A stretch of DNA of 61,180 bases, counting the filler, from Catajapyx aquilonaris (lineage: Eukaryota): the NCBI GenBank assembly GCA_000934665.2. It is 2 parts of 2 records of this genome, joined end to end, with 100 filler letters (N's around TTAATTAATTAA, not from the genome) between each part and the next. Parts side by side here need not be neighbours in the genome. Positions count along the whole stretch, not along the records: positions 1 to 30,505 come from JYFJ02004628.1; 1 more part is not named here. One strand, given 5' to 3'. A model generated the notes under the pieces. That model ran no database searches, was not told the origin of the DNA, and worked only from the letters and a program-made list of their open reading frames with translations. Made by a program: the position numbers and the translations under genes. Shown here in pieces: positions 19,128 to 61,180 of the stretch (position 1 is the first letter of the stretch; the number at the start of each line of letters is the position of its first letter).

Positions 19128-19350
19128 AGCGCTCCCCCTTTGCCCAAGCTGTCCCTGTCGTCGTCGGTGCTAAGTCCAGGCCCGGTCCAGGGCCTCAACG
19201 CTTCCCCGGTTTGCCAGGTGGCGCCGGTGTCCATGGCGGCGCTGGTGTCTGCGGCGCAGGCGCCCTCGCTCCTCCAACCCCCGACGCCCACCATGGCGGG
19301 ACCCATCCGACGTCGGATCAGCGACAAAGCCTCGCTGCCACTCTCGGGAG
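19128..19350 (+). CDS. FoxP: FoxP exon, linker (alternative in-frame acceptor at 19089)
   Basis: cAG|AGC...G|GTCAGT; ends in GPIRRRISDKASLPLSG, the FoxP 'GPIRRR.SDK' motif. Confidence 0.88.
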
Positions 19351-20174
19351 GTCAGTCCTAACTTCTGACTCATCCTGTACATTTTTAACTACAAAGCACT
19401 AACATGATTCTGGTGCCCTTAACACATCTTGTAGGATATTTCTTGCTAGATCCTGCCCCGTGTTATTTACCGCAGCTTGTGGGTTATTTTTCGGATAAGT
19501 ACTGTACGTAAATAATGAACATGACAAGCATTTTGAGCAGACTTTGAGGCCAGATCGCACCTGTGATGGGCAGGAATTTGTCTCCAATTATGAGACGTCA
19601 TGTATGAAGAAAGAATGTGTCTTTGAGGGCTAGAGATGGGTGGGAAAAAGAGCACTTTGATGGCACTAGGAGGACCTCATGAAACGTGATTGCGGAGGGG
19701 GAGAGCGACGGCAAACTAGACGTTGATTCGGTTAGGCGCGCTTGCGGAGAAGGCATTCCCCTCCCTGCTGCCTTCCCGTAGTCTTGGGGATGCTATAGTT
19801 GCTAAGATGCAAATGCATCAGGTGCGCAGTTTTCAGGTGCGGAGAGGGGGTAGTTGGAAGGAGAGGGGGAGGTGTTGGGAGTTCATTTCCTTAACTGCCT
19901 TTGCCTGCTGGGTGGGTTTAATGGGCCTCAACATCGACTAAACTGTTGTAATCATTTTCGCATCAGGAACAGTTACGCCTGATGTTTCAAGCCAGGTAGA
20001 GGAAAAACGGTTTATTGTTGAAATGTCGGCAGGATGAGATGTGAATTGAAATTGTGCAAAAGCGGCTGACTTGCACCAAATGGGCATTCAATTTTATTTT
20101 TTTTTTACCTTGACGGTTTCCCTTTTTTACTCTATTTTTCCTCTACCTCTCTTTGGCCGCCACCAACCTAACAG

Positions 20175-20219
20175 CGCTTCCCTATATGATGGAAAGAGCT
20201 GGGCTTGATGTCCAACAAG
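20175..20219 (+). CDS. FoxP: FoxP 45-nt small exon
   Basis: Long pyrimidine tract, ctaacAG|CG...CAAG|GTAATG; phase 1-1; (A)LPYMMERAGLDVQQ matches the insect FoxP 'LPYMLERAGLDVQQ' segment as I recall it. Confidence 0.88.
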
Positions 20220-21645
20220 GTAATGGCATGCCTCCACCTTGCACTTGGCCTACTGTGTCGCATGATGCATGTCCCATGTGTAGATTAGAAATTAGTACGT
20301 GTGGGTCGCATCCAAGAGCATGACACTGAAAGCAACTGGAAGAGAAATTGACCAGTTAGTTGCAGCATACTAAAATACTAATAACAGTTCCGGTCACCTT
20401 CAGGTTGCGTTCAGCTAGTCAGCTCAGCCCCTAAAAAATCATGGCAACATGATGAGCTCGATGAAAATTATTTGGGTAACTGGCAGGTGGCTTCATTGTT
20501 GAGATTCATTGCGAATCCAGCGATTATGAAAGCATAGGGCCACCGACTATTTTACACAGAAAATTATAGCGCTTGTTGCTGCTGGAGGCAATGTTGGTTT
20601 TATTGCGAGAGTGAAATTTGCAGCACTTTCTCGCCGCCTGTGCCGGGGCTTTTATACAGTGATGCGAACCGCACAATATTAGTTTCGAGAGCGTGCGACT
20701 AGACAACACAAGTCTCGAGCCTTCCCCACTGCATGTTAACATCGAAATGGCGTGTTGTCTCACTTTTGCCTCTTTTCTCACCTTTGCCAAGAAAACCCTC
20801 CTAAATATCTCAGAGGGGGGGCTCGATAGGTTAGGAGTCGGCGCGACAACCGTTTTGAAATATGCATCCTTTACACTGTACGTTACACTGCTCTAAGCTT
20901 TAGTTATGGATTAACTAATTGCTTGGACAATGCGCCACATTGTTGGAAACCCCTGCAGGACATAAATAAATAGTAGGCGGATTTTGAGGAGCCCTTTGGC
21001 CTTTTATACTGCCAAAAAAATATATAAGAAGGGTGTTTTATGCATGCAGAAGGTGACGTCTGAATTTTGATCCGTCCATTAATTGATTCCAAATTTTATC
21101 ATCCTGGCTTGTGGAGCGGAAGGAGGAGAAAAACCTGCCGCTTTTTCCAGAGAAAATGGCAGCGCAGCTTTTAATTCAGAGTTTGATTTTTTGGGAGGGT
21201 TGGAACGGAAAAAAGGAGTTAAAATACATAAAAAGGGTGCCGTGTCGATTCTTTTTTTCCCCAATTTTTCGGATTTTTTTATTGAGCTGCCGTTCATGTG
21301 TAATCCCCCCCTGCCTTTTCCCTCCCATCTTCGGGAGTGTTGCACTGAAAAAGTTCCGCGGTTTCTTGTCTGGATGTGCACTGTATAGCTGTTTCTTAGA
21401 GCTGCATTGTATGTACTCAGTTGCGCTGCTAGAATATTAGAGCTATAGATGCGAGATTTGTTTTTGTTCAGCCCCTTCTCGATTATAGCGTATTGAACAA
21501 CCCGCTGGGGAGATCGGACTCGAAACAAGGTAATTAATTAGCAAAAAAAGAGAAAAAGATTTGCTGGACCCAAGATGGCGGACCCAAGATGGCGCCCATT
21601 TCGTTGTACGGGTAAACTTCAACCCACGTTGAAACAGAGATTTGT

Positions 21646-21683
21646 GAACAAAAGTGACTACCTTCCACGTGGCTGCGTTTCGC
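21646..21683 (+). promoter_or_regulatory. Intronic element exactly complementary to FoxP exon end plus 5' splice site (22374-22411); candidate editing-complementary or splice-regulatory sequence
   Basis: gaacaaaagtgactaccttccacgtggctgcgtttcgc is the exact reverse complement of gcgaaacgcagccacgtggaag|gtagtcacttttgttc; function is inferred. Confidence 0.75.
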
Positions 21684-22107
21684 AGCCAGTGGCAGGAAAT
21701 TTGCGATTTTGGGAACCTCTTTTGACGGAAGTCTAGAAAACCAAAAATGTACAAAAGCAGCGAGCAACACCGACCAGAAGCAGCACAGCCCCCCCCCCTA
21801 CCCCCCTATTTAAGCACTAAAGTTTTAAGCGTGATCAATATGCGAAAAACGGCAAAGAGAACCGATAGTTTGACAAACGTTCTCATTGATTATTGTGTGT
21901 TGCAACTTTTAACCTACGAGCCCCCTACACTTTTCCACATCATTCTTTACCTACCCCCCCTGTACAGTATCCCCTTCGACCTTTTCACGCTTTGCCGAAC
22001 ATGGTTGCAAAAAGTACGACAATACATTTTGCACTTCAGAACAAACCGTCACGATGATTAGAACTCAAAAAACTCAAGCCTGGCTTGTGTCTTTCTTCCC
22101 TTTTCAG

Positions 22108-22184
22108 AAATCCAGCGAAATCGAGAGTTCTACAAGAATGCCGACGTGCGTCCGCCTTTCACATACGCTTCTTTAATACGCCAG
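22108..22184 (+). CDS. FoxP: FoxP exon, start of forkhead domain
   Basis: ttttcAG|AA...[35 protein letters not shown]. Confidence 0.97.
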
Positions 22185-22293
22185 GTGAGTTACTGTACAC
22201 ACGAAATACACGACAAAGTTAGAGAAAATTTTCGAAAGAAAAAAAAAAAAAGCCTCACTGCACTATCCCCCAAATTTTTCTTGTCGGTTGCAG

Positions 22294-22395
22294 GCGATCA
22301 TTGAGGCTCCGGACAAGCAGCTAACCCTCAACGAGATCTACAATTGGTTCCAAAATACCTTCTGCTACTTCCGGCGAAACGCAGCCACGTGGAAG
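22294..22395 (+). CDS. FoxP: FoxP exon, forkhead helices 1-2 to start of helix 3
   Basis: ttgcAG|GCG...[43 protein letters not shown]. Confidence 0.97.
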
Positions 22396-24681
22396 GTAGT
22401 CACTTTTGTTCCTTATCTCTGTGTGAATGTGTGTGTAGGTGCAAGTAGATTAATTGCTTGACCACTTCAAAAGGCAAAACAGTAGTGTAGGAATTTTCAA
22501 ATGTTGCCGCCATTTTTTTACAATTGGAAAAAAAAATTGTGATTTAAAAAAAAAAAACTGGCGATCTGTCTTTTCAGTCGCATGCCCATTGTCTTGTGTA
22601 TGTACTTTGTAACTTTCCTCCTCAGGTTTTTCCACACTGAAAAGAACAACAATCCGTGCTTCTTGAGCCTGGAAAAAAAATAATCAGAAGTTTCCGGAGA
22701 TTGTTGTACTTTTCGAGAGATTTTCTTTCCCCACCGGCACAGCTAAGCACCGTCCACTCGCGAAACACATTGTTCACAAAACACGTATCACACCCGTCTT
22801 TATTTTTGGATACGAATGTGAGAGAACATGACCATTTTGAAGGAAAAAAAAGCACCACATTGACTGCAATGCACTAAAAAGGCGAAAATTAACATCTGTT
22901 AGTTAAATTCAACAATTTCTGTTTGGCTTTTTTAAATATAAAAAAGGGCAAAACATCTTAATGAGCTGTGTACTCAAACATTACAAAGTTAAATCAATAG
23001 TTAATTTTGTAATTGACTAAAACTGTCGTTAACTTCAGAAATTGGTGCAGTTAACAAACAAAAGTAATTTTCTTCTTTTTAGCGTCATATGTCAGAAAAG
23101 TTTCAGACAGACGTATCCTGAACTTGTAAGGTGAAAGTGTGATCTAGTAAGGTGAAAATAGAAATTAATGTCACCTTCATCTTACTGATGTATATGATGA
23201 TACGTTTAGGCGAAATATTTTCTGATAGTTAATATGGCGTGTTTTTTTTCCTAATATTATTTTATTGATTGCAAGTGTCGAACGAGTGTGTGAATGCAAG
23301 TACGACTTATTCCACTCACATTTTTTTTTTTTCAAGTACTCGAACCCAACCGATCGTAATGAAACACTTGGAACCGCAACATACCTTTTATAGTTTTGGC
23401 GTGCGTGTTTGTGTGTTTTTTGTGTGTTCCTTACCACACCCACCCCACTTATTTGTCACTTGCATCGTACAATTTACCTAAATTTTTTTTTGAACGCTTC
23501 TTTTCTGTTAGCATTTTTAAGTTTCTAGTTCTAATTTTTGTGGGCCGGAGCCGTTTTTGATTCCATTTTTCCACTCATTGAAACAAGTTTTAAAACGAAG
23601 AATTTTTGAATTGTCCCCCCCCCCCCCCTTGCCTTTTCTTAAGGGTGGGCGAATTTTCTTTTTCTTCAAATTTTTCTTTTTGGGGGGAGGCTTGGAAGCA
23701 AAGAAAAGGCGCCGACATTATTTTCCCCTCTTTTCCCCCACCGTTCCTTTTTGGAGCGAGACCTACCTTTTCTTTTCTTTCCCTTCCGGTCCTCACACTT
23801 CCTTTTTGTTGCTGGGGAGTCTGTTTACTGAGCCGAAGCTGCTCTTGAAGATTAGGTTACAGCTAGGGACAATATTGACATGTAGAATATGTAAATACCT
23901 GGCACTGTTTACTCAAAAATGCAACCAATATATATGCAAATGCCCATGAATAATGGAATGCATCAAGGCCAGGAGTTTTGTCTGAGTGTAAAGATTTTGT
24001 TCGGCCTGGGTAGGAGGGCTGCCTCAAGTTTCAGTTAATAGACACGTTTTTAATATTTATCACGTCTTTCCCTTTTGTAATTTGAACTCCATTTACGTTT
24101 TGCTTCATTTCGGCCCGAGTGTTTTCCCGGGCACAATAATTGTTTTTCTGCAAATGTAGCTGGGGTCTTTTCGAGTTGGCGGGTTACAAAGTAGATGGCA
24201 GGGACTTCTTCTTGGTTTTTTTGCTTTTTTATAAAACCGCGCTTTTAGTCCGCGATTCCTGAGGTAGGGAGAGGAAAAGTTTGCTCTGTACAAACGACGT
24301 CGGTGGAAATTCGCAACGGCGTGAAGTTTGCTAGGAATCTTCCCCTCCTTCTTCCTTTTACCCCGAAAAACCTTGGACTTATCCATGCATCTCTAAGCAA
24401 ATGGCATGGGGTGGGTTTTTGGAGGTTTTTGGTCCGTGTTTTACCGTGCTTCCGGCCCAACAGTAACAATAGAACCATATATAAAACCAACCCCCCCACG
24501 CCACATGTTTTTTCAAGGGGGGGAATTGTCCGGATGTATGTGGCTAAAAAATCTTTTTTGTCCCTCCCCAACCATTGGTTTGATTTTCTCGACCATACAA
24601 AAAAATAGGAAAAAAACACCAAAAAAGAGAAAGAAATTGAGTTTGCCTTGCTTACTCTTGTGTGTGTATTATTTTGTATAG

Positions 24682-24834
<153 letters not shown>

Positions 24835-25398
24835 TAGGTGGCATGTGACCGGCGTACCGTCCAACTCCGGCTAACCCCTTCTGGCAATCATTTCGATTTG
24901 AACAATCACTGTTTTTTCCTCTCGGAATTTTTCACTCCATTTTTCTCTCTCTTTTATACATCTTATACGTATTCTTAAGGAAATCAGCGTATTGTTGTGT
25001 ATACCAAGGGTGTGTGTAAACCCGTCTCTACGAATTTTGGGCGTTTTCTCTGAATGTTGTTGTACTTTTTGGTGTGTTGTTATCTCTCTCTCCTGCGATA
25101 CCCTGCGTTGTTTCCTTCTACCCTCAAACCATGTTTTTCGCTATCTGGTATTTTTACTCTATCGAGACGGCATTACTACACGACGTATTACAGAAGGAGG
25201 CTGCACACAGATGGGAAGAAGGTACCCCCAAATTGAACATGAGTTGCCATGAAGGGGGCCGGAAGGGTTGGATTTATTTTTCTCTGCTCTCTCTACTACT
25301 ACTCATCCCCCTACCACCGAGTTTTTTCCATACTTTTTTCTCTTTAAAACTTTGTCTTTTTCTCTCTTTTCTCTTTCTTGGTGCTCTATGTCATACAG

Positions 25399-25574
25399 AA
25401 CGCGATCCGCACCAATCTCTCACTGCACAAGTGTTTTGTGCGCTATGAAGACGACTTTGGCTCCTTCTGGATGGTGGACGATGCAGAGTTTATCAAGCGG
25501 CGACATCTTTCTCGTGGCCGACCACGGAAATATGACCCCACCCCGTCACCCACTCCACCCCACCTCTCTGCACA
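25399..25574 (+). CDS. FoxP: FoxP mutually exclusive forkhead exon B (divergent paralogue)
   Basis: catacAG|AAC...[55 protein letters not shown]...; phase 0-2, same as exon A. Confidence 0.95.
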
Positions 25575-28500
25575 GTAAGCACTGACCTTTTAGAACAAAC
25601 TTTGATGCTGCCTCTAGGTGTCTTGCAGGCTTTTGGGCTGCTCCTAGCTTCTTCCTATAAACAAAACAAAAGCCATAAAGCAAAAGGCCCTACCCGAGTG
25701 TTCCGGGATGGCGATTTCGGACGCGCCCGGATGACGTCACAGCGCGTGAGGAACCAATCGGATGAGGACACGACGTCAAACGGGCTCGTCCGAAACCGCG
25801 TTTCTTTAAAACAATTGCGGTTAAGGCTGTAAATCACACGCATTTTTAAAAAATTGAAATAAAATTCAGACGGTCGTTTCCGACCCTAGCGGTACATGAG
25901 AATGAATTTCAGTGGACGTTCTCTCTCCATAACTAATCAGAAGTCAAAGTACCACCGTCCGTATGATAATTGTTTTGAAGTATGAATATTCAAAAGTAAG
26001 CGGGCATAGAAACTATAGTTTTGTACAGTTGAAATATCCGCCAAAGCGGTCGCGCTTTTGACCAATTCAACGTCCTGGCTACTTTTTCAAAAAATTTCCT
26101 TCGCCGGGTGGAGTACAAAACTCTGGGGGGAACTATATTTTGCCGGACGTTTTGCGAGCACGAGTTTTCTTTTGGGGGGAAAACCCCGGAAAACGGACCG
26201 TATTTTAGGGGGGAAAGTCTGGATCTACGGAATCACCCGGAACACGCAAAAAATTATATATCCTCCTGACCTTTCCGATTGACCTATAACAGGCCAGAAC
26301 TTTCTAATTAATTAATCAACCGGATTATGTAGTTCTGCCCTGTTTATTCTTCCTTCAAAAAAATCCCCCCCTGGTGCAGAAAAGTAGTCGTAGGGGCCTC
26401 CTTATCAAATATCCATATCCTCCCATTAAAAATGCTAAGAGAAAGTAGTTGGCGCACATAGATCAGCCCCCCTGTAGAAAAGTCTTGCAGGAAAAAAAAT
26501 GCAGGGACTGTGCATGGCTGTAGTTACACACACAGTGAGCTAGGGAGTGAATGCATGATGGTATGAAAAGATGTGAGCTTGTGAGAGCGAGTGTGGTTTT
26601 CGGTCAAATATTACCACCCCTCTGTCCCAATCACCAACCACCAAACCCAAGCCTTAACATGTGAGGATGTGGGGACACAGTGAAGACTGATGCTGTTGAC
26701 AGTGAAGAGTTATCTGGGAGTCGAGGTAGAGGGGGTGGGGGTGAGGGTGTATTTAAACATTTGGCGGAGTCTGGGAGTATTGACGCAAGCATAACAAGGG
26801 TGGAGTGGGTGCAGGCCTCGGTGTTGTCAAAACACACAAAAGGAATTGGAAGGAGGGTGGTTTGGGGTTTTTTTGGTGGGGTGTTTTTCTTCTTCGCTCC
26901 GGAGATTGAAGCCAAAGTCTTCCAGCACCAATTTTTTTATATATACAGCATAGTCCTGGCAAAGGTTGGCAAAATTTTCTTCAGAAATTTTGGTGCCTTC
27001 ATTACTTTAGGGGGGATGAGCAGGCGCGATATTTATACAGAATCCCCTCACCGACCCTGTAATTAACTACTAGATAAGCTCGTTTGATGACTCTAGATTC
27101 TTTTTGGCACCCTTCTCCACCCACACACCACCTAGAAAAAAAAGGTGGCATCGGAAGAGAAATCCGCTTTCTGAGCACCTAAAAACCGTGCTTTTGGCGC
27201 CTGCCTTTTCCTTACTCTGCTTTTGCTCCCTCCGTCGTAATGGCTTATTGTTTCCTTGGCATAGCTTGGGTCTTGTTTCCACAGACTGAAAACCATCGAC
27301 ATTGTCTTGTTGTTCCCATTGTGAGGCGGGAAACCTCAAAAGGAGAGCGGAAATCAACGGAGTAAAAGGGCACGGGTGAAGAAGAAAAAAAATCGTTTAA
27401 CCAAGGGAACCGAGTAGTTGCATAAGAATCTGGATATGCCATTACGTGCCATAACAATGTCGAAGGGTGCTTTTCTTCCTTTAAAAAAGTAATCAGTAAG
27501 CACTAATGTAGTGCACCTCACTCCCCTTGATAGGACTTAAGGTTAGGGAAAAATAAAAAGGTTAGGGCATGACTCCACCATTCAACGTTGACCAATTTTG
27601 CTTGTGCATGGCTTGGTAGTAGTAAAGACAATAAAAAGAGGGGGAAAAAAACCGCTTTGCTTTTGCATGCAGGGGTAACAAACCACACCTCAGTATTTAT
27701 GGGCCCAGGCCGCGAGTTCCAGCACTTGAATCTACGGAAGTCCATTTTTATGATGGTTGATAATAACGACGCACTTCTGCGTGTCGCATACAACTCGAAA
27801 CGTGGGTGGAATACGGAGTCGTTACGTGTTGACATGTGTGGAAAAAGGGGTTTGCCATATAACATTTCAACCCTGTGGTCCACTTTACCATTCCACCATT
27901 AGCTATAAATTATTTTGAGTTTTTGGCTCATTTTCTATTTGCAATTTCTTTTTGGGTGGAAATCTTCGTCTTAATAAATTGGCAATTTTTAGCCAAATTG
28001 GCGGAATTTGTACTCAAATTGACGAAAAATCATATCAAAATAATTGTTGGATTCCCTGTTGCTCAAGTGTAGCAGGAGCAGGAAGAAAACTCAAAATAAC
28101 GTGCAAATATCGCGGTACTGAATAGGGAATAAATCCGTTCGTCTGAATGGTAAAATTATTTTTAATATTTTCGCCAGATTTTATGCAATTAGCCGAACTC
28201 AGTGAAGGCTCGGTTGTAGGAACTCAAATTACGAGAAATCTCTGATTCTGGACAGATATTCATAACGCGTAAATCCGAGGTTTTCTCCTAATGTTTGTTG
28301 CCAAGAAAAATATCGAAATTTATGCATAATATTTGAGATGAATGATTCGTGATTTTTCCTTAATATGCGTTGATGCAACCGGACCTTAGTACTTCAAACA
28401 CTGCTATAATTTATGGCTGAATAGTTGTCAAAAACTTGTACTCGCATAAACAGTCCCATAAAATGGGTCAATATTGTAACTATCACTGCCACGGTTATTG

Positions 28501-29702
28501 AGCCACGGATGTCAATCACAGATTTTACCGTCTATTACCCACACATAACACGACAATTTTTTTGGGTTGCAAACTCGAACCCGTGGCTCAAAAGCGTGGA
28601 GTGATAATTACTGTTGATTGCTTCGAACAAGTGCTGGAAATAATTATTTCGAGAGGCGGCAGAGGCGATATTGAGGTGGTGCCGTAGAGCTTGGGAATGT
28701 TGTCTTGAGCTTATAAAAGCCGACATCTAATGAGCCCATTTCTTCGGAGGGGCCTGGGAGCCTTGTACACTGCCCACTGGTCACTATCTAGGATAATTAA
28801 CATCTGCAAGCAGAAACACCCGACTGTGGAGACAGCTGAAGCAGGTTGAGGTCTTCTTTTCACGAGCTCTTTTTCACCTTACGAATTTTCCCGTTCTTTC
28901 TCTCATATTTGCTAACTACCCTGTTTTTCCACTCCCTCCGTTTTACTACTACTATTTCAATCTACTGAGTGTTTTTTCACGTTTTTATATATATCTACTA
29001 CATCTTTTTTACTCGAACTTTCTCGATGTTTTTTGAATCCAACCATACGGCCATGATGCTTGGGTGTGAACCATGATTATATTTTTCGTCGACTGTACCT
29101 TTTTTGTCTGTCCGCATCTATAGACTGTTGTGTGTTGTTCGGACTGTCTCTGTTCTCGTTGTCGGCATCGAAATACACAGGTACCATGGTCACCCTACAG
29201 CATATGGCAGGTGCTTTTTCCAAACAAAAAAAAAATGAAAACGTCGCTAGGTAGGTCTCAGAATATAATGGCAAACCCGGTTCCAGCAGGATATACTTTT
29301 TTAATTTAACTGCTTTCAGTTTTATATTTAACACCAATATTTTGTCTCACCAGCGGTTTGCCATTAGAAAGAGCAAAAAAAAAAGGAAATAAGCACTGTA
29401 AACTTTTTGCTTCAAATCAGTCCCCAGGTCGTATTTCGTTTGGAGATAAATCAGCAGTCTAAGGTTTGTGCAGGTGTATAATATGGCAGGTAAATTCATA
29501 TTTTACATTTTTTCGATCTCTTTTTGACATCTCGAAATGTAGATAGTTTTGTCGCCCAACAAAATGTTTGACATGAACGTTTTTATCACATTGCATTTTT
29601 ATGCAATGAAAACCAGAGGAGCCATAAACCAAGAAATAAGAAAAATGAAGATCTGAGAGTGCCAGATGTGGTCTAACGTTCGTTGTTTTGTTGCGTCCAT
29701 AG

Positions 29703-29775
29703 GGGTGTCCAAGCCAAGAGCCCTACTCTAACCCAGAGCCCACTCTACGGCGAAGCGTTGAATGCCAGCCTCCAG
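29703..29775 (+). CDS. FoxP: FoxP common exon downstream of the forkhead domain
   Basis: gcgtccatAG|G GGT...CAG|GTAGGT; phase 2-0, in frame with both A and B; GVQAKSPTLTQSPLYGEALNASLQ (FoxP 'SPTL...YG.ALNASLQ' motif). Following exon(s) not found. Confidence 0.93.
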
Positions 29776-30505
29776 GTAGGTTGGTTTGTAAGTGTCGAAA
29801 CAATCATTTCCTCTTTCTATGTATAGTGTCTAGTTGTTGCATCCCCAAAAGACGGCTCGAATGTTGCGGAGACACTAGTTTAAATACATGTGTGGGAATA
29901 CCCGCGATTTCTTGGAGTTTAAATATGGCGCAGAGCTCGGGCCGTCGACCACAGCATGAATTGGAACAAGATTCTAGTGCACGCAATGATTCTTTTCTGT
30001 CAGAATACTATGGTTGAAAGACTGTTGTTTGAAAGACAACTGCTTGTAACCAGCTGGCTAGAAATCGCTAGAACGGACAAGTACGATGCGAAACGAAACA
30101 GTCTTTACTTGTATACTTCTTGGCTGCCGAAACACACAAAATAATTAACTCTTGTCATACATCTCACCTTAAACGCTAGGTTATTGTTGGAAACAATGCA
30201 CAGAACAATTCTGGGTAAACCTGGATGCAACCGAACTCATTACGCGTAATACATCGCCAGTAATTGAAATCTTACATCTTAATATTTCGCATGATGTTAG
30301 CCCTGAAGTGTCATGGCTGCCACATATCCGTTCTCTTGATTTGTAGTGCGTGTTAACTTATCCGAATTAGTAGTTTTGGATCACAGTGACCACGTTGCGT
30401 TTCTATAGCAGTTGCCGGTCAACAACCAACAGGCCCTCGACTAACTTACATAGATCATGTTCCTTTCATTCTGACACTCGTACTCTTAAGAGTTACTAAC
30501 ACATG

Positions 30506-30605: not shown

Positions 30606-30725
30606 TATTTACCCATTAATTAACCTACGCCATTTACACCTATCCAAACAAACAACCCTAGCCTCAGCCACGTCCATGGTCCTATTGACACAAGAACGTC
30701 TCTAGTTCTAGTTCTAGTTTCCGAT

Positions 30726-32105
30726 ATGGGGGGGAAAAATGCAAGACTCTGGCGAGAACTCAAGATATCACCCTCAAGCAGTCATTTCATGCACCCTGAT
30801 ATTCCCAGTGCAAGAGTGCATGTTTTTGCTGACATACCTCACCTATTAAAACTCCTGCGTAATCATTTCCTAGACAGTGGTTTTGCCCTTGGATGTGGCA
30901 GTGTCATTACCAAGGATATTTTGGATGATATATTAGATGATCAAGATGAATTTGACTTATGTCCCAAGTTATCGCTGCACCATATTACTGTTGAAGGCAG
31001 GGGGAGGCAAAATGTCGCATTGGAAGCTCAGCTGTTTTCGCACACAGTGTCCAAGGCAATTTTGCATGTTACAGAAGACGAAAAATCGTCCGAGGTGTTT
31101 GAATTAGTCAACGACTTTTTTGACGTTATGAATTCTAGGGTACCGAGACACCGAAGCAACTGGAAGAAAAGTGCTTATGGAGTGACACTAAACCAGCAGG
31201 ATGAGATTCTCTCAAGAATGGAAGATTTTTGCAAAACTATGCGAGTTGGTGATAGAAAAAGCAGACGTCTGCCTTTCCAGAGAGGGCTACTAGTAATAAG
31301 TATTTCATCCATCAGGGGTTTGTACGAAGATGTTAACAACAAAGGAATGTCTTATGTCATGACAAGTCGCTGTAATCAAGACTGCTTAGAAAATCTCTTT
31401 AGCCAGGTGCGCGGGCTGGGGAATTTTAATGACAATCCCTTGCCAACTGATTTTAAATATCGGATGAAACAACTCCTCCTATGTCCTACATTGCCAGGAA
31501 TATCGAAGAATGCGAGTGTGAACGAACGTGATCAGACAGTAAATTATGAGACATCAAAAATACTTAGCCCTTCATTTGGAAAACAAGAACTGAGACATTT
31601 GACGCTGGAGAGGTGTGGCAGCCCAAAGGAGAAAATCCTTCTACCCAGAAAGGCACAGATGACATGTAGTGGAAAAACACAACAGGGAAGTGATGGACTA
31701 AAATATGTGGCCGGGTACCTCGCTCGTCGCTTGCGCACCAGTTTCGCGACGTTGGGGATAAAAGCAGACGGTGATGGCAGTGGGTGGATGGGCAGGATTT
31801 CGCGAGGTAACCTGACGAAACCAAGCTTTTCTTGGTTAGACATGGTTTACATGTTTGAGGGAGCATTCACCGCGTTACATGGGACAAGCCTACGTTCAGA
31901 CAAATATGTCGTCAGAACACTTATACATCAATTGCAATCGCGATTTCCTGCAGTACCAGCCAAAGTTATCCAGGTCTACTCCCGCATCAGAACTTTTATT
32001 AGGATTAAAGCTATCAATAAGCGATTGGCCAATTTAAGAGCTGCAAAATCACGGGCACAAGTCAGGCGAACCCGTCAGCTTGCCATGTCCAGCTTGTCTT
32101 TTTAG
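30726..32105 (+). mobile_element. P-element superfamily (THAP9/Galileo-like) transposase, 5'-truncated
   Basis: 459-aa ORF preceded in frame by VSD (vSDMGxxN); motifs FADIPHLLKLLRNHFLD, RQNVALEAQLFS, FFDVMNSR, SRCNQDCLENLFSQVRGLG..DNP, LKYVAGYLARR; no N-terminal THAP domain visible. Confidence 0.9.
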
Positions 32106-33536: not shown

Positions 33537-33862
33537 AAAGGACACCGCACATAATGTATGGGCGAGTGGCCTTCCGTTTGATTTGCCTGAAAATGGGATA
33601 TGTTGTAGCCCAGACCGTCCTGATCAATGTTGGATAGGGACATTTCGAGGTAGGACGTACAGGGAGCGTGCTAATATAATATGGGGTGTAGTTACTATAT
33701 TCCCCATATTACCTTCGGAGGTCATTAGCATGCTCCATGTAGGTCCTACCTCGAAATCTTCCTGTCTAACATTGATCATGACAGTCTGGGCTACAACATA
33801 TCCCATTTTCAGGCAAATCGAACGGAAGGCCACTGGCCCATACATTTGGTGCATTGTCCTTT
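33537..33862. repeat. About 325-bp imperfect palindrome (MITE or foldback)
   Basis: aaaggaca...atgtatggg.cagtggccttccgtt.gatttgcctgaaaatgggatatgttgtagcccagac mirrored at 33758-33862; the loop holds a further small hairpin. Confidence 0.8.
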
Positions 33863-41900: not shown

Positions 41901-44900
41901 CCGGGCGTACCTCCGGAGGAGCTCATTCACATTATAATAATTTATCATATATTTTTATTGCAAAAATCGACTCAGCTTAAAATAAATAAGGGTTTATTTC
42001 GTTTCAGTCAGTCAATATTAGGTTTATTAGTCTTTCTGTAAACATAACACGGTGCAACCAGGCCAAATAAGTCACGGACCCAAGTACATGACATATGCAC
42101 TGGGGGTAGCATATATAATATATATGTGTATTTTTTTCTTACGTCGTTCCCGTTGAGTATGCAGAAGCCATATACTCAATGGAGGTACCGACAGTACAGA
42201 GCAAACATTGTTGTCCACAAAAGAAACAGGTTTTTGACGAGCCCCCCTCGGAGTGGTCCCCCCTCGAAAGCACGTACTGTACTTGCACCAATATGTTACA
42301 GTATGTATATACGCATGATCCACGTAGACGAGCCCCATCAATTGAGATTAAGTCACCATAAAAATAACATTCGGTCTACAGGCTAGTCTATAAGATTTTC
42401 GTGAGGGTAGGGCGGAAGGGTCAAAGGCTTAAATTGGGATCAGGGTTATGGGGAGAGGGGGTGGGGTCTTGGTTTTATTTATTTTTTTCCTGTACACTAG
42501 AGACGATCGAGGTCTGCTCTATTCTAGATCCGTCAACGTCTCTATCCGCCGTAAGTCTGTCCAACCGTCCCTGCGAGCCTCTTAATCCCTCCTCCTGGCT
42601 GATTAGCTAATTAAAACACGAAAATGGGGGGGGGGGGGGGGGNGGCAGACGACAAAGGTAATGGGGAGAGGGGGGTAGGGAAAGGGTTATACTTCATTAA
42701 TTTGCCCATCTTCATGTCTGCTGGGATATAAAGGCTATGGGTTGAGTCTATATCTGCCTGCTGATGATTTCTGCCGTCGCATTCTTCACAATAAATGACT
42801 TTTTAAACACCAAATGTTTGACAGTTTGTGAGATATGGAATACTTTAGGACGAAGGAGAAAGCATATGTAAAAAATCCTGTCTTGAAATGAGAACACCCT
42901 AACAAGTAAGTACTGGTAAATACTTGAGGAATTATTAGCTGACACGATCATAAGGTAATATGAATGTGGTGGTCGTAACATACAAAATCAGATACAAAAG
43001 CAGATGTCAATTCATTAGGCCTTTACAACTTTATGATATCGGGTTCCCGATGACATTGCACGTTATGTGCACATTGCGCATATCATACCTGCTTTGGAAA
43101 ATATATATCAGTTTCCTGATTATATTTCTGCGTTAATATTGCAATACACTGAATGACACATAACGGTATGAAGGGGCATTTTACACAACACATAGAGCGC
43201 TAAAATTCCTGGATTATCAAGTCATTTTGCTGAATGTATCCATATAATCATATCTTTTACATTACAATACGATACAAATGTGCATATCTTCAGGTGATAT
43301 TTTTTTTCGCCAAGATAGGTTTTACGTATTTTGACTTCTGGAATGACTGGTAAATTAAGCGAAACAAATGGGACAGCAAATCAGCGGAGGTCTGCGATTA
43401 ACTGACATGTTAAAAGGTAGGAACTGCCTGATGCGTTCTATCTTTTTTTAACACGAGCACATTTGATCACATAGCGCCCCTGAAGAAAATGTAGCCAATA
43501 TCAAGATTGAAGACAATAACTATGCATTAATACCATTCAATACTCAGTCTTCACCAGCAAGCAGAATCGCAGAGGGACATTTCTTTTTTTTCTTCTTTTT
43601 ATCCGCGAAAAGGAGGAAGAAAGCAGGCTAATGATGGATGAATAAACGACAAGGCAACACGTCAAACGGCTACTCGTCCGTCCCGAGAACTGCCTGGACA
43701 GGGCTAGACAAGATATTACGGTCACGCTCTATACGTAACACTCACGTACTGTATGGTTGGGTAGGTGGTTGGGGGAGGCTGGGGATGGGCTACGGAGACA
43801 CCGACGTACACGTACAAGTACGGACGCAGGGGACAGTTGCGCATCTGTCTGTCTGTCTCTGCTTCTTCACATTTTTTCCCATTTCAAAGGGACTTTTTGG
43901 GGGGAGATACTTGTTACACGCTGGGATAAACTCAGCTTAGGTACAGCTATAGGGAGGAGGATGAACGACTGTCTGACAGGGGGCGTTCAAAATTTAGTAT
44001 AGTAAGTTATATATACATATATTTTTGGTCGCTTGGCAGAGAGGAAACCATGAAGAGTTAAAGGGTTCTGGGTTATGTCAGGAAGGAAATAATTAGCTAA
44101 ATTATCGTCAGCAATGCAAAAGTTGGTGTTGACATTTAAGGTTTGGGTTAAGAAGTAGCGCAATTAGTTGCCAGTCTGAGGTCTAATGAAAGTGCAAAAG
44201 AACTTAACCTGTCCTGCCGAAAAACATGAAACATAACATGTTGCGTTACAGTTTTTGTTTCTGTATATGGTTTCTCGGAAATAAGTGCTTTTTGCACTGC
44301 CAGCGACAACATTCTGACTAGAGTCCAGCGGCAGGGCGTAAGAAAACGTCCAATGTTACAAGGGTAGGTCCTAGGCATATTCGCTGACTCACTGTTATCA
44401 GTATACACTTCCATGCCTACACGGCATGCCACTGCGAGGAGGTCGCTGGGAGTAATGGTACAGGCAAGTACGCTCTTATTTCCAACACCGTTTCCACACA
44501 TTGATGGTCAAGCTGTCGTGGAATACATTAAAAAAATTCCTGTCACCATCAAGTGTTGGAAACAAAAATGTGCTTGGCCAAAAGTACACCCCAAACTACA
44601 CCAAGCATGCTGCCATGTTACGCATGTGTTTTTGCAACAGTCAGCCTATGACCAAGGGTCTTCCACAATAACATATATTTTAGAAAGCCAGAGCCCATAG
44701 ACGCGTTCCAGGAAGACAATGGAATTCAGGTCTGCGTCTGTGGTCTCCGTGCAATTGTTGGCCGCGGTACTCTTGTGCGCATGTTTCGAATGTCATCCCA
44801 GGCCCGCCCCCCGTCGTCATTTGCACTTAGAGCTTTTTTTAAATTTCCTCGTGTCTCTTAATTATTTTGCACACAATCATCTTCGCAATAGAATTGAAAC

Positions 44901-44942
44901 TCTTGCTCGCTCTGGTCCCACCATCTTCCTGGGGGAGGTGTT

Positions 44943-45043
44943 TTACTCTGGCTTCAAGCGATGCCACTGCACGATGGTCTGCCTTGGCTTCGTTATCATA
45001 TCCTGCCAATGCTTCGTCTCCGATGCCCCCGTGCCGTTCTTCC
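44943..45043 (-). CDS. Syt7: Synaptotagmin 7 last coding exon (C2B end, stop)
   Basis: ctgcAG|GG; GKNGTGASETKHWQDMITKPRQTIVQWHRLKPE*; WHxL terminal motif of synaptotagmins. Confidence 0.95.
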
Positions 45044-45125
45044 CTGCAGAGTAGGAAATAATACATTGGGAGGTCAGTTGCAAAATCAACCAGCAAATGG
45101 CCAGACTTCAAAGAACACCACATGC

Positions 45126-45338
45126 CTGCCAGAAGGATGCGTCCGATCAGCTCGTTGCGACCAATGTTGTCAAAGTCATTGACAATGACATCCAGAGAAC
45201 ATTCTCGGATCTTTTCCCAGGGGACGTTGAAAGTGAAGGTCTCGTTGAACACTGGGTTGAGGGTGCATTTGAACACCGGCGTCTTCCTTTTCTCGATACG
45301 TTTATCTCCGAATTGCAGCCACACCTTCACGTAAGGGT
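45126..45338 (-). CDS. Syt7: Synaptotagmin 7 exon (C2B), ends at a GC donor
   Basis: ttctcAG|AC; DPYVKVWLQFGDKRIEKRKTPVFKCTLNPVFNETFTFNVPWEKIRECSLDVIVNDFDNIGRNELIGRILLA; CAG|GCATGT; phase 1-1. Confidence 0.93.
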
Positions 45339-46599
45339 CTGAGAAGAAACAAACCTCGTGTTCATGTTACTAAAACTACCGTTCCCCCTTGTGTGAGGGG
45401 AAGGGTGGGTGTGTGCATGTGTAAGTTATATGTTTTACACAGGATAATATAACAAGGTAGGTAGGTAGATCTACACTGCTAACAGAAATTTTGCTTATTT
45501 ATCTGTTTCTAATACGGTTTGGCTGCCGAATATCCAAGGGGGTTCATTATAGAGATGTTTCGCTGACTCTGAAAATTGAAGACCACAATTCAATTAGGGG
45601 CCAATTGTGAAAATAGAAAAAATGTCCAGGAAGCAAAAACACTATTTTTTTCTGATTCTGCTCATGGTAGGCAATTGCGGTCTAAACCTAATGACAGATA
45701 TCTACAAGATGAATATCTGACATCACTTTCATTGAAATGTCCATATAATTTATATTTCATTTAAATACTTTTAATGCTCACAATTGGGCTCTTCTTGCGT
45801 TGTATCGTTCCTTTGGCTTAAATATGGAGAATAACATGTCTCAGGATAAAATTAATGAATGATTATGATATACAAGAGACATAGTATTCGCCTCAGAGTA
45901 ATTACACACTATATTTTATTTTATTTAATGTTTTTTTGGTTTCCCATGCCACCTAGGTCTACCTTATAAATTTTTGACCACTTCCCGAGGGCGTAGGTCA
46001 AAGATTTTTTGGTGACATGATTATAGACCCACAAGTCTACTTTATTTTCCACTAGGTTTAGCACTGCTCCTCAGAGGGGAACGTTCTAATGGTAAAGTAA
46101 CGCATCTCCTTTAGAAGTAGCGCATAGACAAAAATCACCGCTATTTTCAAATCGCGGGTCACTTGTAGTGTATTAAAATCGCGCTTTTCAAGTGACAATC
46201 ACGTTTGTCACTGCTATCGAGAAATCGCGTTTTTGTTTGTCGATGGTTAAAAGCTTTTTTCAGGCATTACTAGTGACATTTCGGCTCTTGCATTTTATAC
46301 GGATCCACCAGAGGAAGTACAATATGCCATAAAAGCATGTCCATAAAAGTTGACAGATTGGCCCTTATTGCATTGTGGCATTCAATTTTTACGTATAGGA
46401 TCAACCATAGTACGGGCTGGCTGAGGTCAAATAAATTGAAAATCTCAGTCTTAAAGTCTAGACTACACGATATTTTCAAAAGAGCATGTCGCAATTGGGT
46501 GCATTGCTTTCTCCCGTAAAATAAGGCTTTTATCCCGCAAAAATCTGCGATTTGTTACAATCATGGTCTTATAATACTAAGGTCTGGTCACTACCTCTT

Positions 46600-46930
46600 A
46601 TCGCCTCTTATCTCATGCCTCTTATCTCATGGCGCTTTCAAGTGAGCACCTCATGCAAAACGCCCCGTTTTGCATGAGGTGCTCACTTGAGAGCAACATG
46701 AGACCGCCTTTCACTGCTACATTATGTGGCGACCCTACCGGACCGTGATGAACTTAGGTAGAAGGGAAGCCGCTACATGCGGGGAGGCCGCCGGCGACCA
46801 TGTTGGGTCCCCCAATGTAGCGCTTCCCTTTTGTACCTATAAAGTTCAGCGTACTCCGGTAGGGTCGCCACATAATGTAGCAGTGAAAGACTGTCTCATG
46901 GCGCTCTCAAGTGAGCACCTCAGGCGATAA
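46600..46930. mobile_element. Composite or nested palindromic MITE(s) in a Syt7 intron
   Basis: Hairpin tcaagtgagcacctcatgcaaaacg-ccc-cgttttgcatgaggtgctcacttga, and a larger IR ctttcactgctacattatgtggcgaccctaccgga ... tccggtagggtcgccacataatgtagcagtgaaag. Confidence 0.75.
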
Positions 46931-59599: not shown

Positions 59600-61180
59600 T
59601 GCTAAGGGACAAATTTGACCCAAACTTTGCATTTTGTGACAAAAGTATGAAACTCGGTACAATTGTTCTTTGGACACTTCTGATCATATCTGGACGTGGA
59701 GCCACGATGACCCACCCCGGTGGAGGTCCATTTCGCAGGGTTGCCATAACTACCAGATGCAGCATCCTTTAGGACCTTGTATTGGGTGACAAAAACATGA
59801 AACTCGCCGCAATTGGTCTTTGGACACTTCTGAACATGTCTGGATGTGGGGCCATGATGGCTGACCCCGCTGTGGGTCACTTGCAGGGTTACCAGATCTA
59901 ACGGACCAAACATACATCTCTGCGAAGATCATGTGAATTGGGAGCTTGCATTCGGTGATAAAAACGTGAAACTCGGTACGGTAGTTCTTTGAACACATCT
60001 CAACATATTTGGACGTGGGGTCACGGTGGGTGACCCCTGGTGGCCTCGCCAGGGGTCACTATCGCGGAGTTGCCAAATCGAACATGTGTTGCACACCTTT
60101 ACATGAATAAGGGCCTTGCATTCGGTGATAAAACACTGATAAAACATGAAACTCGCCCCAATTGGTCGTTGGACACTACTGAACATGTCTGGAAGTGAGG
60201 CCACTATGGATGACCCCGCTGGGGGTCACTCGCAGGGTTGCCAGATCTAATGGGCTCTCTAAGTCAACTATGTGAATAGGGAGCTTGCATTCGGTGACAA
60301 AGACATGAAACTCGGTACAATATAGTTCTTTGCGCACTTCCGAACATATCTGGATGTGGGGCGACGATGACCCACCCCGGTGGAGGGCACTATCATGGTG
60401 TTGCCAAATCTAACAGACTGTACAACATGCGTTTATGTTTGAATAAGGGACTTGCATTTGGTGACAAAGACGTGAAACTTGGTAGAATTGTTCTTTGGAC
60501 ACTTCCGAACATATCTGGACGTGGAGCCACGATGACCCACCCCGAGGGAGGGCACTATCTCAGGGTTGCCATATCTAACAGAATGTGCAACATGTGTTTA
60601 TTTTTGAATAATGAGCTTGCATTCGGTGACAAAGCCATAAAACTTGGTACGTTAGTTCCTTGGACACCTCCGAACATATCTGGACGTGGAGCCATGATGA
60701 CCCACCTAATGCAAGCTCATTATTCAAATATAAACACATGTTGCACATTCTGTTAGATATGGCGACCCTGCGATAGTGCCCTCCCTCGGGGTGGGTCATC
60801 GTGGCTCCACGTCCATATATGTTCGGAAGTGTCCAAAGAACAATTCTACCAAGTTTCACGTCTTTGTCACCAAATGCAAGTCCCCTATTCAAACATAAAC
60901 GCATGTTGTACAGTCTGTTAGATTTGGCAACACCATGATAGTGCCCTCCACCGGGGTGGGTCATCGTCGCCCCACATCCAGATATGTTCGGAAGTGTGCA
61001 AAGAACTATATTGTACCGAGTTTCATGTCTTTGCCACCGAATGCAAGCTCCCTATTCACAGAGTTGACTTAGAGAGCCCATTGGATCTGGCAACCCTGCG
61101 AGTGACCCCCAGCGGGGTCATCCATAGTGGCCTCACTTCCAGACATGTTCAGTAGTGTCCAACGACCAATTGGGGCGAGT
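59600..61180. repeat. Tandem array (about 150-190 bp units) that inverts at about 60.66 kb into a long palindrome (foldback-like)
   Basis: Repeated gtgacaaa...gaaactcggtac...tggacacttc.gaacatatctgga.gtgg; 60151-60623 is the near-exact reverse complement of 60708-61180. Confidence 0.9.

Follow-up and report, generated by a model that had tools for sequence, protein, structure and literature searches.

We analysed a 61,180-nt stretch of DNA from Catajapyx aquilonaris (hereafter the window), which consists of two records joined through 100 filler letters; positions 1-30,505 come from JYFJ02004628.1. The window carries a FoxP gene in which the end of a forkhead exon, together with the donor that follows it, has a long inverted copy in an intron further upstream. 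FoxP is the single invertebrate counterpart of FOXP1/2/4; what sets the A, B and intron-retention isoforms apart lies in the DNA-binding domain. Scripted sequence comparison showed that intronic positions 21646-21683 are the exact reverse complement, over 38 nt, of positions 22374-22411. The two segments are predicted to pair in the pre-mRNA into a duplex enclosing the donor from which two alternative forkhead second halves are reached.

Gene structure and splice sites of the FoxP locus

The gene was recognized as FoxP, in agreement with the first-pass annotation of this DNA, by profile matches to PF16159 (FOXP-CC, 5.5e-20) and PF00250 (Forkhead, 1.3e-08 on exon Y and 2.5e-07 on exon A). Exon B matches Forkhead at 2.4e-05 with 24.8 bits, which is under the Pfam cut-off of 27 that exons Y and A exceed. 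The best named protein matches are from scorpion and Blattodea, at about 70-88% over short exons. The parts of the gene that matter here are as follows.

20220..22107, + strand: host intron of the upstream arm; skipping of the cassette exon that ends at 20219 moves the intron start to 19351.
22108..22184, + strand: exon X, 77 nt, with an open reading frame for a 26-letter peptide; joint 22184>22294 in X5, X6 and X7; donor CAG/GTGAGT, 9/9.
22294..22395, + strand: exon Y, with the Pfam Forkhead match at 1.3e-08 and spliced contigs.
24682..24806, + strand: exon A, a forkhead second half; joint 22395>24682 in X5 and X7; end ambiguous by 1 nt.
25399..25574, + strand: exon B, a variant forkhead second half; Y>B junction in X7; end ambiguous by 1 nt.

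The RNA evidence consists of the contigs of the data sets X5, X6 and X7, which drop minor variants, and all statements on it hold among the records listed. One spliced X5 contig runs from the upstream exon through exons X and Y into exon A, following the order of the window. In X7, a contig in which 25397 is preceded by 16 letters from the end of exon Y continues to the exon at 29703, into which exons A and B both continue. The donor at 22395/22396 thus feeds two alternative forkhead exons, as had been proposed. On the 5' side, loose contig ends before 22106 map to 19319-19348 (X5 and X6) and to 20188-20217 (X7). The upstream exon ends at 19350, and the upstream arm lies about 410 nt from the exon X acceptor. 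A cassette exon at about 20114-20219 (..MMERAGLDVQQ) is contained in an X7 contig and skipped in X5 and X6, where 19350 is joined directly to exon X.

The donor of exon Y, AAG/GTAGTC, agrees with the consensus at 5/9 positions and lacks +4A, +5G and +6T, against 9/9 for exon X. For comparison, a degenerate DNA pattern for a 12-residue peptide retrieved 24 FoxP loci from metagenomes; the same pattern gave 0 matches in genome and viral contig collections. An intron is present at this junction in 22 of the 24 loci, and 20 of these 22, from about 10 lineages and with many near-duplicates, have no A at +4 (GTAC or GTAT). Since so many intron-bearing loci of other arthropods lack +4A, the weak donor at the Y junction seems to be an old trait by this sequence comparison. 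The loci L002 and L006 have no intron after ..NAATWK and run directly into a 10-residue continuation; they also have WFTTTF in place of WFQNTF. The alternative A and B forkhead exons themselves are described as ancient by Santos et al. 2010/2011 (PMC3002244).

An intronic arm complementary to the exon Y donor

Both cores of the inverted repeat stand exactly where the first-pass annotation had placed them, with a spacing of 690 nt. Positions 22374-22395 are the end of exon Y, coding ..R N A A T W K, and 22396-22411 are the first 16 nt of the next intron, beginning with GTAGTC. A repeat search widens the core to 50 nt at 92% (21646-21695 versus 22362-22411). Local alignment of the arms over 21622-21717 and 22434-22346 gives 77 identities in 89 columns, with 12 mismatches and 4 gaps.

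21622..21717, + strand: upstream arm; repeats the end of exon Y and the start of the next intron in inverted, partly decayed form, in the intron 5' of exon X.
21646..21683, + strand: perfect core of the upstream arm; exact complement, and a separate 38-nt unitig in DNA run X1.
22346..22434, + strand: downstream arm, made up of 50 nt at the end of exon Y and 39 nt at the start of the next intron, from the alignment and the predicted helices.
22374..22411, + strand: perfect core of the downstream arm, with 22 nt of exon, the donor AAG/GTAGTC and 16 nt of intron.
21662..21695, + strand: alternative local hairpin within the upstream arm; fold of -20.2 kcal/mol, with four differences in paired stretches.

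When 21300-22110, the region around the upstream arm, was compared with the window, it matched itself and the exon arm and nothing else, so the arm belongs to no repeat family within the window. An Rfam search returned three sub-threshold matches, none of them in the duplex, and assigned the upstream arm to no known RNA family. Because the flanks adjoin the core in register and because 21300-22110 has no other match, the sequence comparison indicates that the match between the arms is not due to chance.

The first-pass annotation had raised the possibility of an assembly chimera. In the assembly of DNA run X1 (Logan contigs) the contigs break exactly at the repeat, leaving a 38-nt unitig with a depth of 49.8. 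This unitig sits between contigs of depth 32.2 and 18.3 and is then followed by a contig of 31.5. Its depth is about the sum of its neighbours (32.2 + 18.3), and the flank joins are the same as in the window. This is the pattern expected of a true two-copy inverted 38-mer at k = 31. X1 may be the source sample and hence not independent, and its graph leaves the orientation of the middle piece unfixed; that orientation is fixed by the spliced RNA contigs, since they join the exons in window order. As far as contigs can show, the repeat is not an assembly chimera. The X1 unitig between the two copies (21654-22403) has a depth of 18.3 versus 31.5-32.2 in its flanks, with no variant letters listed; a second haplotype, or poly-C tracts that bias the sequencing, may account for this low depth.

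Predicted fold of the pre-mRNA

Cofolding of 21590-21740 with 22320-22450 gave -134.9 kcal/mol, with helices of 6, 8, 38, 10, 7 and 4 bp in the homologous part. The duplex energy is -133.3/-134.9 kcal/mol, with about 76 bp paired in all. The helices on both sides of the core agree with those named in the earlier annotation. In a 901-nt fold the duplex is retained in both the minimum free energy and the centroid structure (z -4.4; 0/20 shuffles as stable), and all 38 of the 38 core pairs persist in a 3,181-nt fold. The duplex is therefore very stable and is kept in both the 0.9 kb and the 3.2 kb pre-mRNA folds. Donor positions -22 to +16 are all inside the perfect core, which places the splice-site nucleotides within the predicted helix, as had been claimed. 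The loop closed by the duplex holds exon X, the 109-nt X-Y intron and 80 nt of exon Y.

A long-range pairing next to mutually exclusive exons could belong to a docking-site/selector system of the Dscam, 14-3-3 zeta and srp type that enforces the A/B choice. The downstream arm does lie just after a constitutive exon, as does the docking site of Dscam exon 6 (PMC4691838). Such a system needs further partners, and none was found across 19300-30000, nor any near exon A or B. The next-best duplexes in this region reach -37.8 versus -72.1 for the donor arm, -41.2 versus -69.8 for the exon arm and -45.7 versus -98.0 for the upstream arm; they are bulge-rich and near the scan background (medians -18.9 to -26.7, sd 5.6 to 7.3). 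As only a single pairing exists across 19300-30000, we rejected the docking/selector reading, which has hardly any credence left.

The upstream arm also has a fold of its own. Its local hairpin at 21662-21695 has about 14 bp and -20.2 kcal/mol, whereas the exact exon complement would give -8.3. The differences from the exon complement at 21684, 21686, 21687 and 21691 all fall in paired stretches of this predicted hairpin. Either one template-switch mutation has left this trace, or the hairpin is a second fold in competition with the long-range helix.

Divergence between the arms

The substitutions between the arms had been taken as G·U-compatible on the sense strand, and this as a sign that the fold is under selection. 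We found this to be true of 2 of the 12 substitutions (21628 and 21691), with a third G·U (21696) arising via a register shift. The remaining 10 of the 12 are transversions that open internal loops. With only 2/12 fitting, the G·U argument for selection is weak.

All 12 mismatches and 4 indels are in the flanks, and the 38-nt core is unchanged. A clean run of at least 38 is expected by chance with p 0.002, 0.008 and 0.04 for 16, 13 and 10 random events, respectively. Since neutrality leaves the upstream arm unconstrained, the intact core gives a hint that pairing is selected. The same picture would arise from a young duplication with ragged ends.

The latter is the core of a rival explanation, in which the upstream arm is a neutral young inverted duplication produced by a replication template switch. 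The duplex might then still form, with helicases resolving it, and would have no selected role. Transversions at 10 of the 12 flank differences, and a single templated cluster formed by four of the 12, are expected at birth from error-prone template switching, and inverted repeats are frequent in the window (109 pairs). A perfect core beside decayed flanks is, on the other hand, improbable under uniform decay (the p values above), and a 38-bp helix that serves no purpose should carry a cost when it covers a donor both weak and essential. That the arm stands outside any repeat family in the window also speaks against this explanation. Two further points favour it, namely the apparent lineage restriction of the element and RNA contigs free of editing or splicing anomalies. 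Taken together, we regard a neutral origin without function as somewhat unlikely.

Comparison across arthropods

A search for the element in orthologous FoxP introns of related arthropods had been suggested. None of the 24 other arthropod loci, which are distant, carries a comparable one; the best Watson-Crick run in them is 14 nt versus 38, and their best duplex z values range from -1.5 to -3.7 versus -8.5 in the window. For 22 of these loci more than 1.1 kb of upstream sequence was available, and L005 and L022, with less than 500 nt upstream, are not a fair test. Four near-identical and non-independent, termite-like loci (L001, L015, L021 and L023) have a 13-nt intronic complement at -1121 from the exon end, and L008 has a 14-nt complementary run at +3144. 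Both runs are complementary to the exon part coding WFQNTF and extend into no longer helix.

A protein search with the exon Y open frame plus its read-through gave 157 matches, of which 26 were compared. The read-through peptide, which is 21 residues long as had been stated, is shared by 0 of these 26 (of 157) short frames matching exon Y, P0123 included. P0123, the nearest relative at the protein level with an identical exon Y peptide, has a different intron start. As far as can be seen from these sequences, the element appears to be lineage-restricted.

RNA evidence on editing and splicing

A perfect exon-intron helix of this size could be a true editing-complementary sequence (ECS) for the adenosine deaminase ADAR, with the recoding of forkhead residues as its main role and a secondary effect on splicing, as at Gria2 R/G. 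At 38 perfect bp, the helix exceeds the approximately 20 bp or more of exon-intron double-stranded RNA (dsRNA) looked for in such elements. In the predicted fold 17 of the 18 adenosines listed across 22346-22434 are paired, including those of AAG at 22394 and UAG at 22398. These two are the adenosines with a 5' A or U and a 3' G. Under the ECS reading the candidates would be 22394 (K>R, at donor position -2) and the intronic 22398, and also N (AAC) and T (ACG). The layout parallels that of Gria2 R/G, where an edited A lies at donor -2 before mutually exclusive exons (PMC3553983).

The first-pass annotation had suggested recoding by A>G in exon Y. Over 22291-22393 there are 0 A>G differences in the contigs of X5 (depth 4.6) and X7 (depth 50.8), which miss minor variants, and the 16 exon Y letters of the X7 Y>B contig are unchanged. 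Editing of most transcripts in the X5 and X7 samples is therefore unlikely. The X6 contig ends at 22384 with a depth of 3.6 and one difference in 22291-22384, and nothing was inferred from it. RNA contig coverage excludes the upstream arm (21594-21740). X7 contains many A>G and T>C differences elsewhere; these were rejected as editing, as they are in divergent intron contigs and are symmetric. In Drosophila melanogaster, the editing-site table of PMC5319793 (supplementary file 13) has 0 FoxP rows, and we found no paper on A-to-I recoding of FoxP in Drosophila. On this evidence, recoding as the main role is unlikely.

Retention of intron 22396-24681 had also been suggested. Among the contigs listed, none passes 22395 into this intron, and the donor of exon Y is used normally in all three RNA data sets. 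Intron-retained, exon-skipping and back-splice contigs are likewise absent among those listed, which speaks against retention in the majority of transcripts from these samples.

Inverted repeats on either side of exons favour exon skipping and the formation of circular RNAs. Exons X and Y lie between the two arms, whose pairing could loop out both exons, promoting their joint skipping (179 nt, a frameshift) or a circular RNA by back-splicing. One of the arms, however, covers the very donor that a back-splice would need. Among the joints listed from 21300 on, there is neither a backward joint nor an upstream-exon loose end at 24682, which is weak evidence given the low depth of the contigs. We consider looping-out very improbable.

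Other features of the window

An open frame of 493 aa at 30624-32102 (+ strand) is placed inside the FoxP intron after exons A and B and matches a P-element/THAP9-type transposase (TNP-like GBD 2.2e-07, RNase H C-terminal 2e-05, Tnp_P_element_C 5.6e-05). Downstream of FoxP, on the opposite strand, 44842-45366 (- strand) contains a C2-domain exon (3.2e-16) of a synaptotagmin-like gene. The inverted repeats of the window comprise 109 pairs of at least 28 nt within 5 kb, mostly repeats. Large near-perfect palindromes are present at 60151-61180, 33537-33862 and 46672-46925 (for example, 478 nt at 98% with a 74-nt spacer) and are probably hairpin-forming repeats or transposon remnants.

Possible occlusion of the donor by the duplex

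The reading we tentatively prefer, at a probability of roughly 0.4, is that the duplex is a lineage-restricted element which occludes the exon Y donor and has a selected role, with ADAR editing as a possible side effect. Sequence, predicted fold and exon structure were obtained directly; from them we infer that the duplex forms in vivo, occludes the donor, influences the A/B choice and is under selection. The masking of the splice site is deduced from the geometry of the helix. Points in favour are the stability of the predicted duplex in every fold, a perfect core centred on a weak donor that feeds exons A and B, the lack of changes in that core, an upstream arm outside any known RNA family or window repeat, and precedents in Gria2 and in the retained intron of Drosophila FoxP.

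In this model, about 96 nt, corresponding to the last 50 nt of exon Y and the first 39 nt of the next intron, would have given rise to an inverted copy in the intron 5' of exon X. The copy would be transcribed first, and the end of exon Y with its donor, emerging about 690 nt later, would zip onto it. The donor would emerge 288 nt past the host-intron acceptor; as the arm is already transcribed by then and the distance is only 288 nt, the helix could form before the host intron is removed. The resulting duplex of about 76 bp, in which 38 uninterrupted bp are centred on the weak donor sequence AAG/GUAGUC, would keep U1 off the donor that chooses exon A (2.3 kb on) or exon B (3.0 kb on). Use of the donor would then depend on unwinding, so that the splice might be slowed or limited and the A/B commitment delayed. 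Leakage could give intron-retained or mis-spliced RNA. The 38-bp perfect helix should also be a good ADAR substrate, and some editing, as a side effect, is likely wherever ADAR is present.

Several points weigh against donor occlusion. None of the 24 other loci carries a comparable element, and P0123 does not share the intron start. The intact core also fits a young duplication whose flanks were ragged from birth, and the four flank differences resemble one template-switch event. The upstream arm's own hairpin draws on some of the bases that the long-range helix needs. After excision of the upstream intron the arm would still be paired in trans, and its release is not explained by the model. 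The normal use of the donor, with no retained, skipped or back-spliced contig among those listed, leaves the proposal with no experimental or RNA-level sign of an effect.

A stronger version would make the duplex a selected gate on the ancient FoxP A/B switch, combined with neuronal ADAR recoding. The weak donor would stay closed until set free by the upstream intron or by a helicase, and both acceptors would thereby exist before commitment; in neurons, ADAR could then recode nearby DNA-contact residues as well as the lysine at donor -2. If true, the Gria2 R/G-flip/flop coupling would have a counterpart that arose by convergence in a transcription factor. We find this combination quite improbable.

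A 38-bp helix exactly over the splice site that chooses between isoforms is a concrete and easily mutated candidate control element, and in the literature we found no described mechanism for the choice among FoxP isoforms. If the arm is neutral, it is a clear natural case of an exon-complementary intronic element born by inverted duplication. Elements of this kind are what editing sites and splice-site masks are made from.

Comparison with known systems

We class the predicted duplex with the exon-complementary intronic elements or splice-site-occluding duplexes. Drosophila FoxP has an intron-retention isoform at the same junction, and retention truncates the forkhead domain, as reported in the main text of Mendoza et al. 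2014 (PMC4070984); this bears out what had been stated about the equivalent junction. FoxP of Drosophila and FoxP of the window share the exon ending in ..NAATWK and two alternative forkhead second halves. They differ in that the Drosophila gene retains the following intron, for which there is no contig among those listed here. The main texts of PMC4070984 and PMC3002244 do not mention secondary structure or RNA editing (0 counted in PMC3002244), and no FoxP RNA duplex is described in them. That no description of such an element in FoxP was known agrees with our literature search, in which none was found of a FoxP RNA duplex or of FoxP editing.

In Dscam, 14-3-3 zeta and srp, docking-site/selector and bidirectional pairings act in mutually exclusive splicing, as described in the main text of Yue et al. 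2016 (PMC4691838), where FoxP is absent. These systems and FoxP have in common long-range intronic pairing in arthropod genes with mutually exclusive exons and weak splice sites adjacent. The docking systems have competing pairings beside each variable exon, whereas FoxP has a single pairing that includes exon sequence and the donor itself.

The gene para of Drosophila offers another parallel. Its exon-intron editing duplex, as Reenan and colleagues are said to have found in 2000, hinders splicing unless the MLE helicase resolves it. An exon-intron duplex would be common to para and FoxP. The two would differ in that the para partner reportedly lies in the adjacent intron and that editing of para is said to be documented.

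By analogy, the closest known architecture is the Gria2 (GluA2) R/G hairpin upstream of flip/flop. In both genes the end of the last constitutive exon and its donor lie in dsRNA with an intronic complement, which for FoxP is predicted, and in both that donor feeds two alternative exons. The Gria2 partner is just downstream and forms a short local hairpin. In FoxP, unlike Gria2, the partner is 690 nt upstream and two junctions back, with a whole exon and intron in the loop. The Gria2 structure is described as highly conserved and its editing has been measured (PMC3553983), whereas the FoxP duplex is known from sequence and predicted fold. According to Balik et al. 2013 (PMC3553983), the splice site of Gria2 lies within the ECS structure, position -2 holds the edited A, and there is a link between editing and the choice of exon. 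The FoxP helix is far longer than that of Gria2, and it is perfect.

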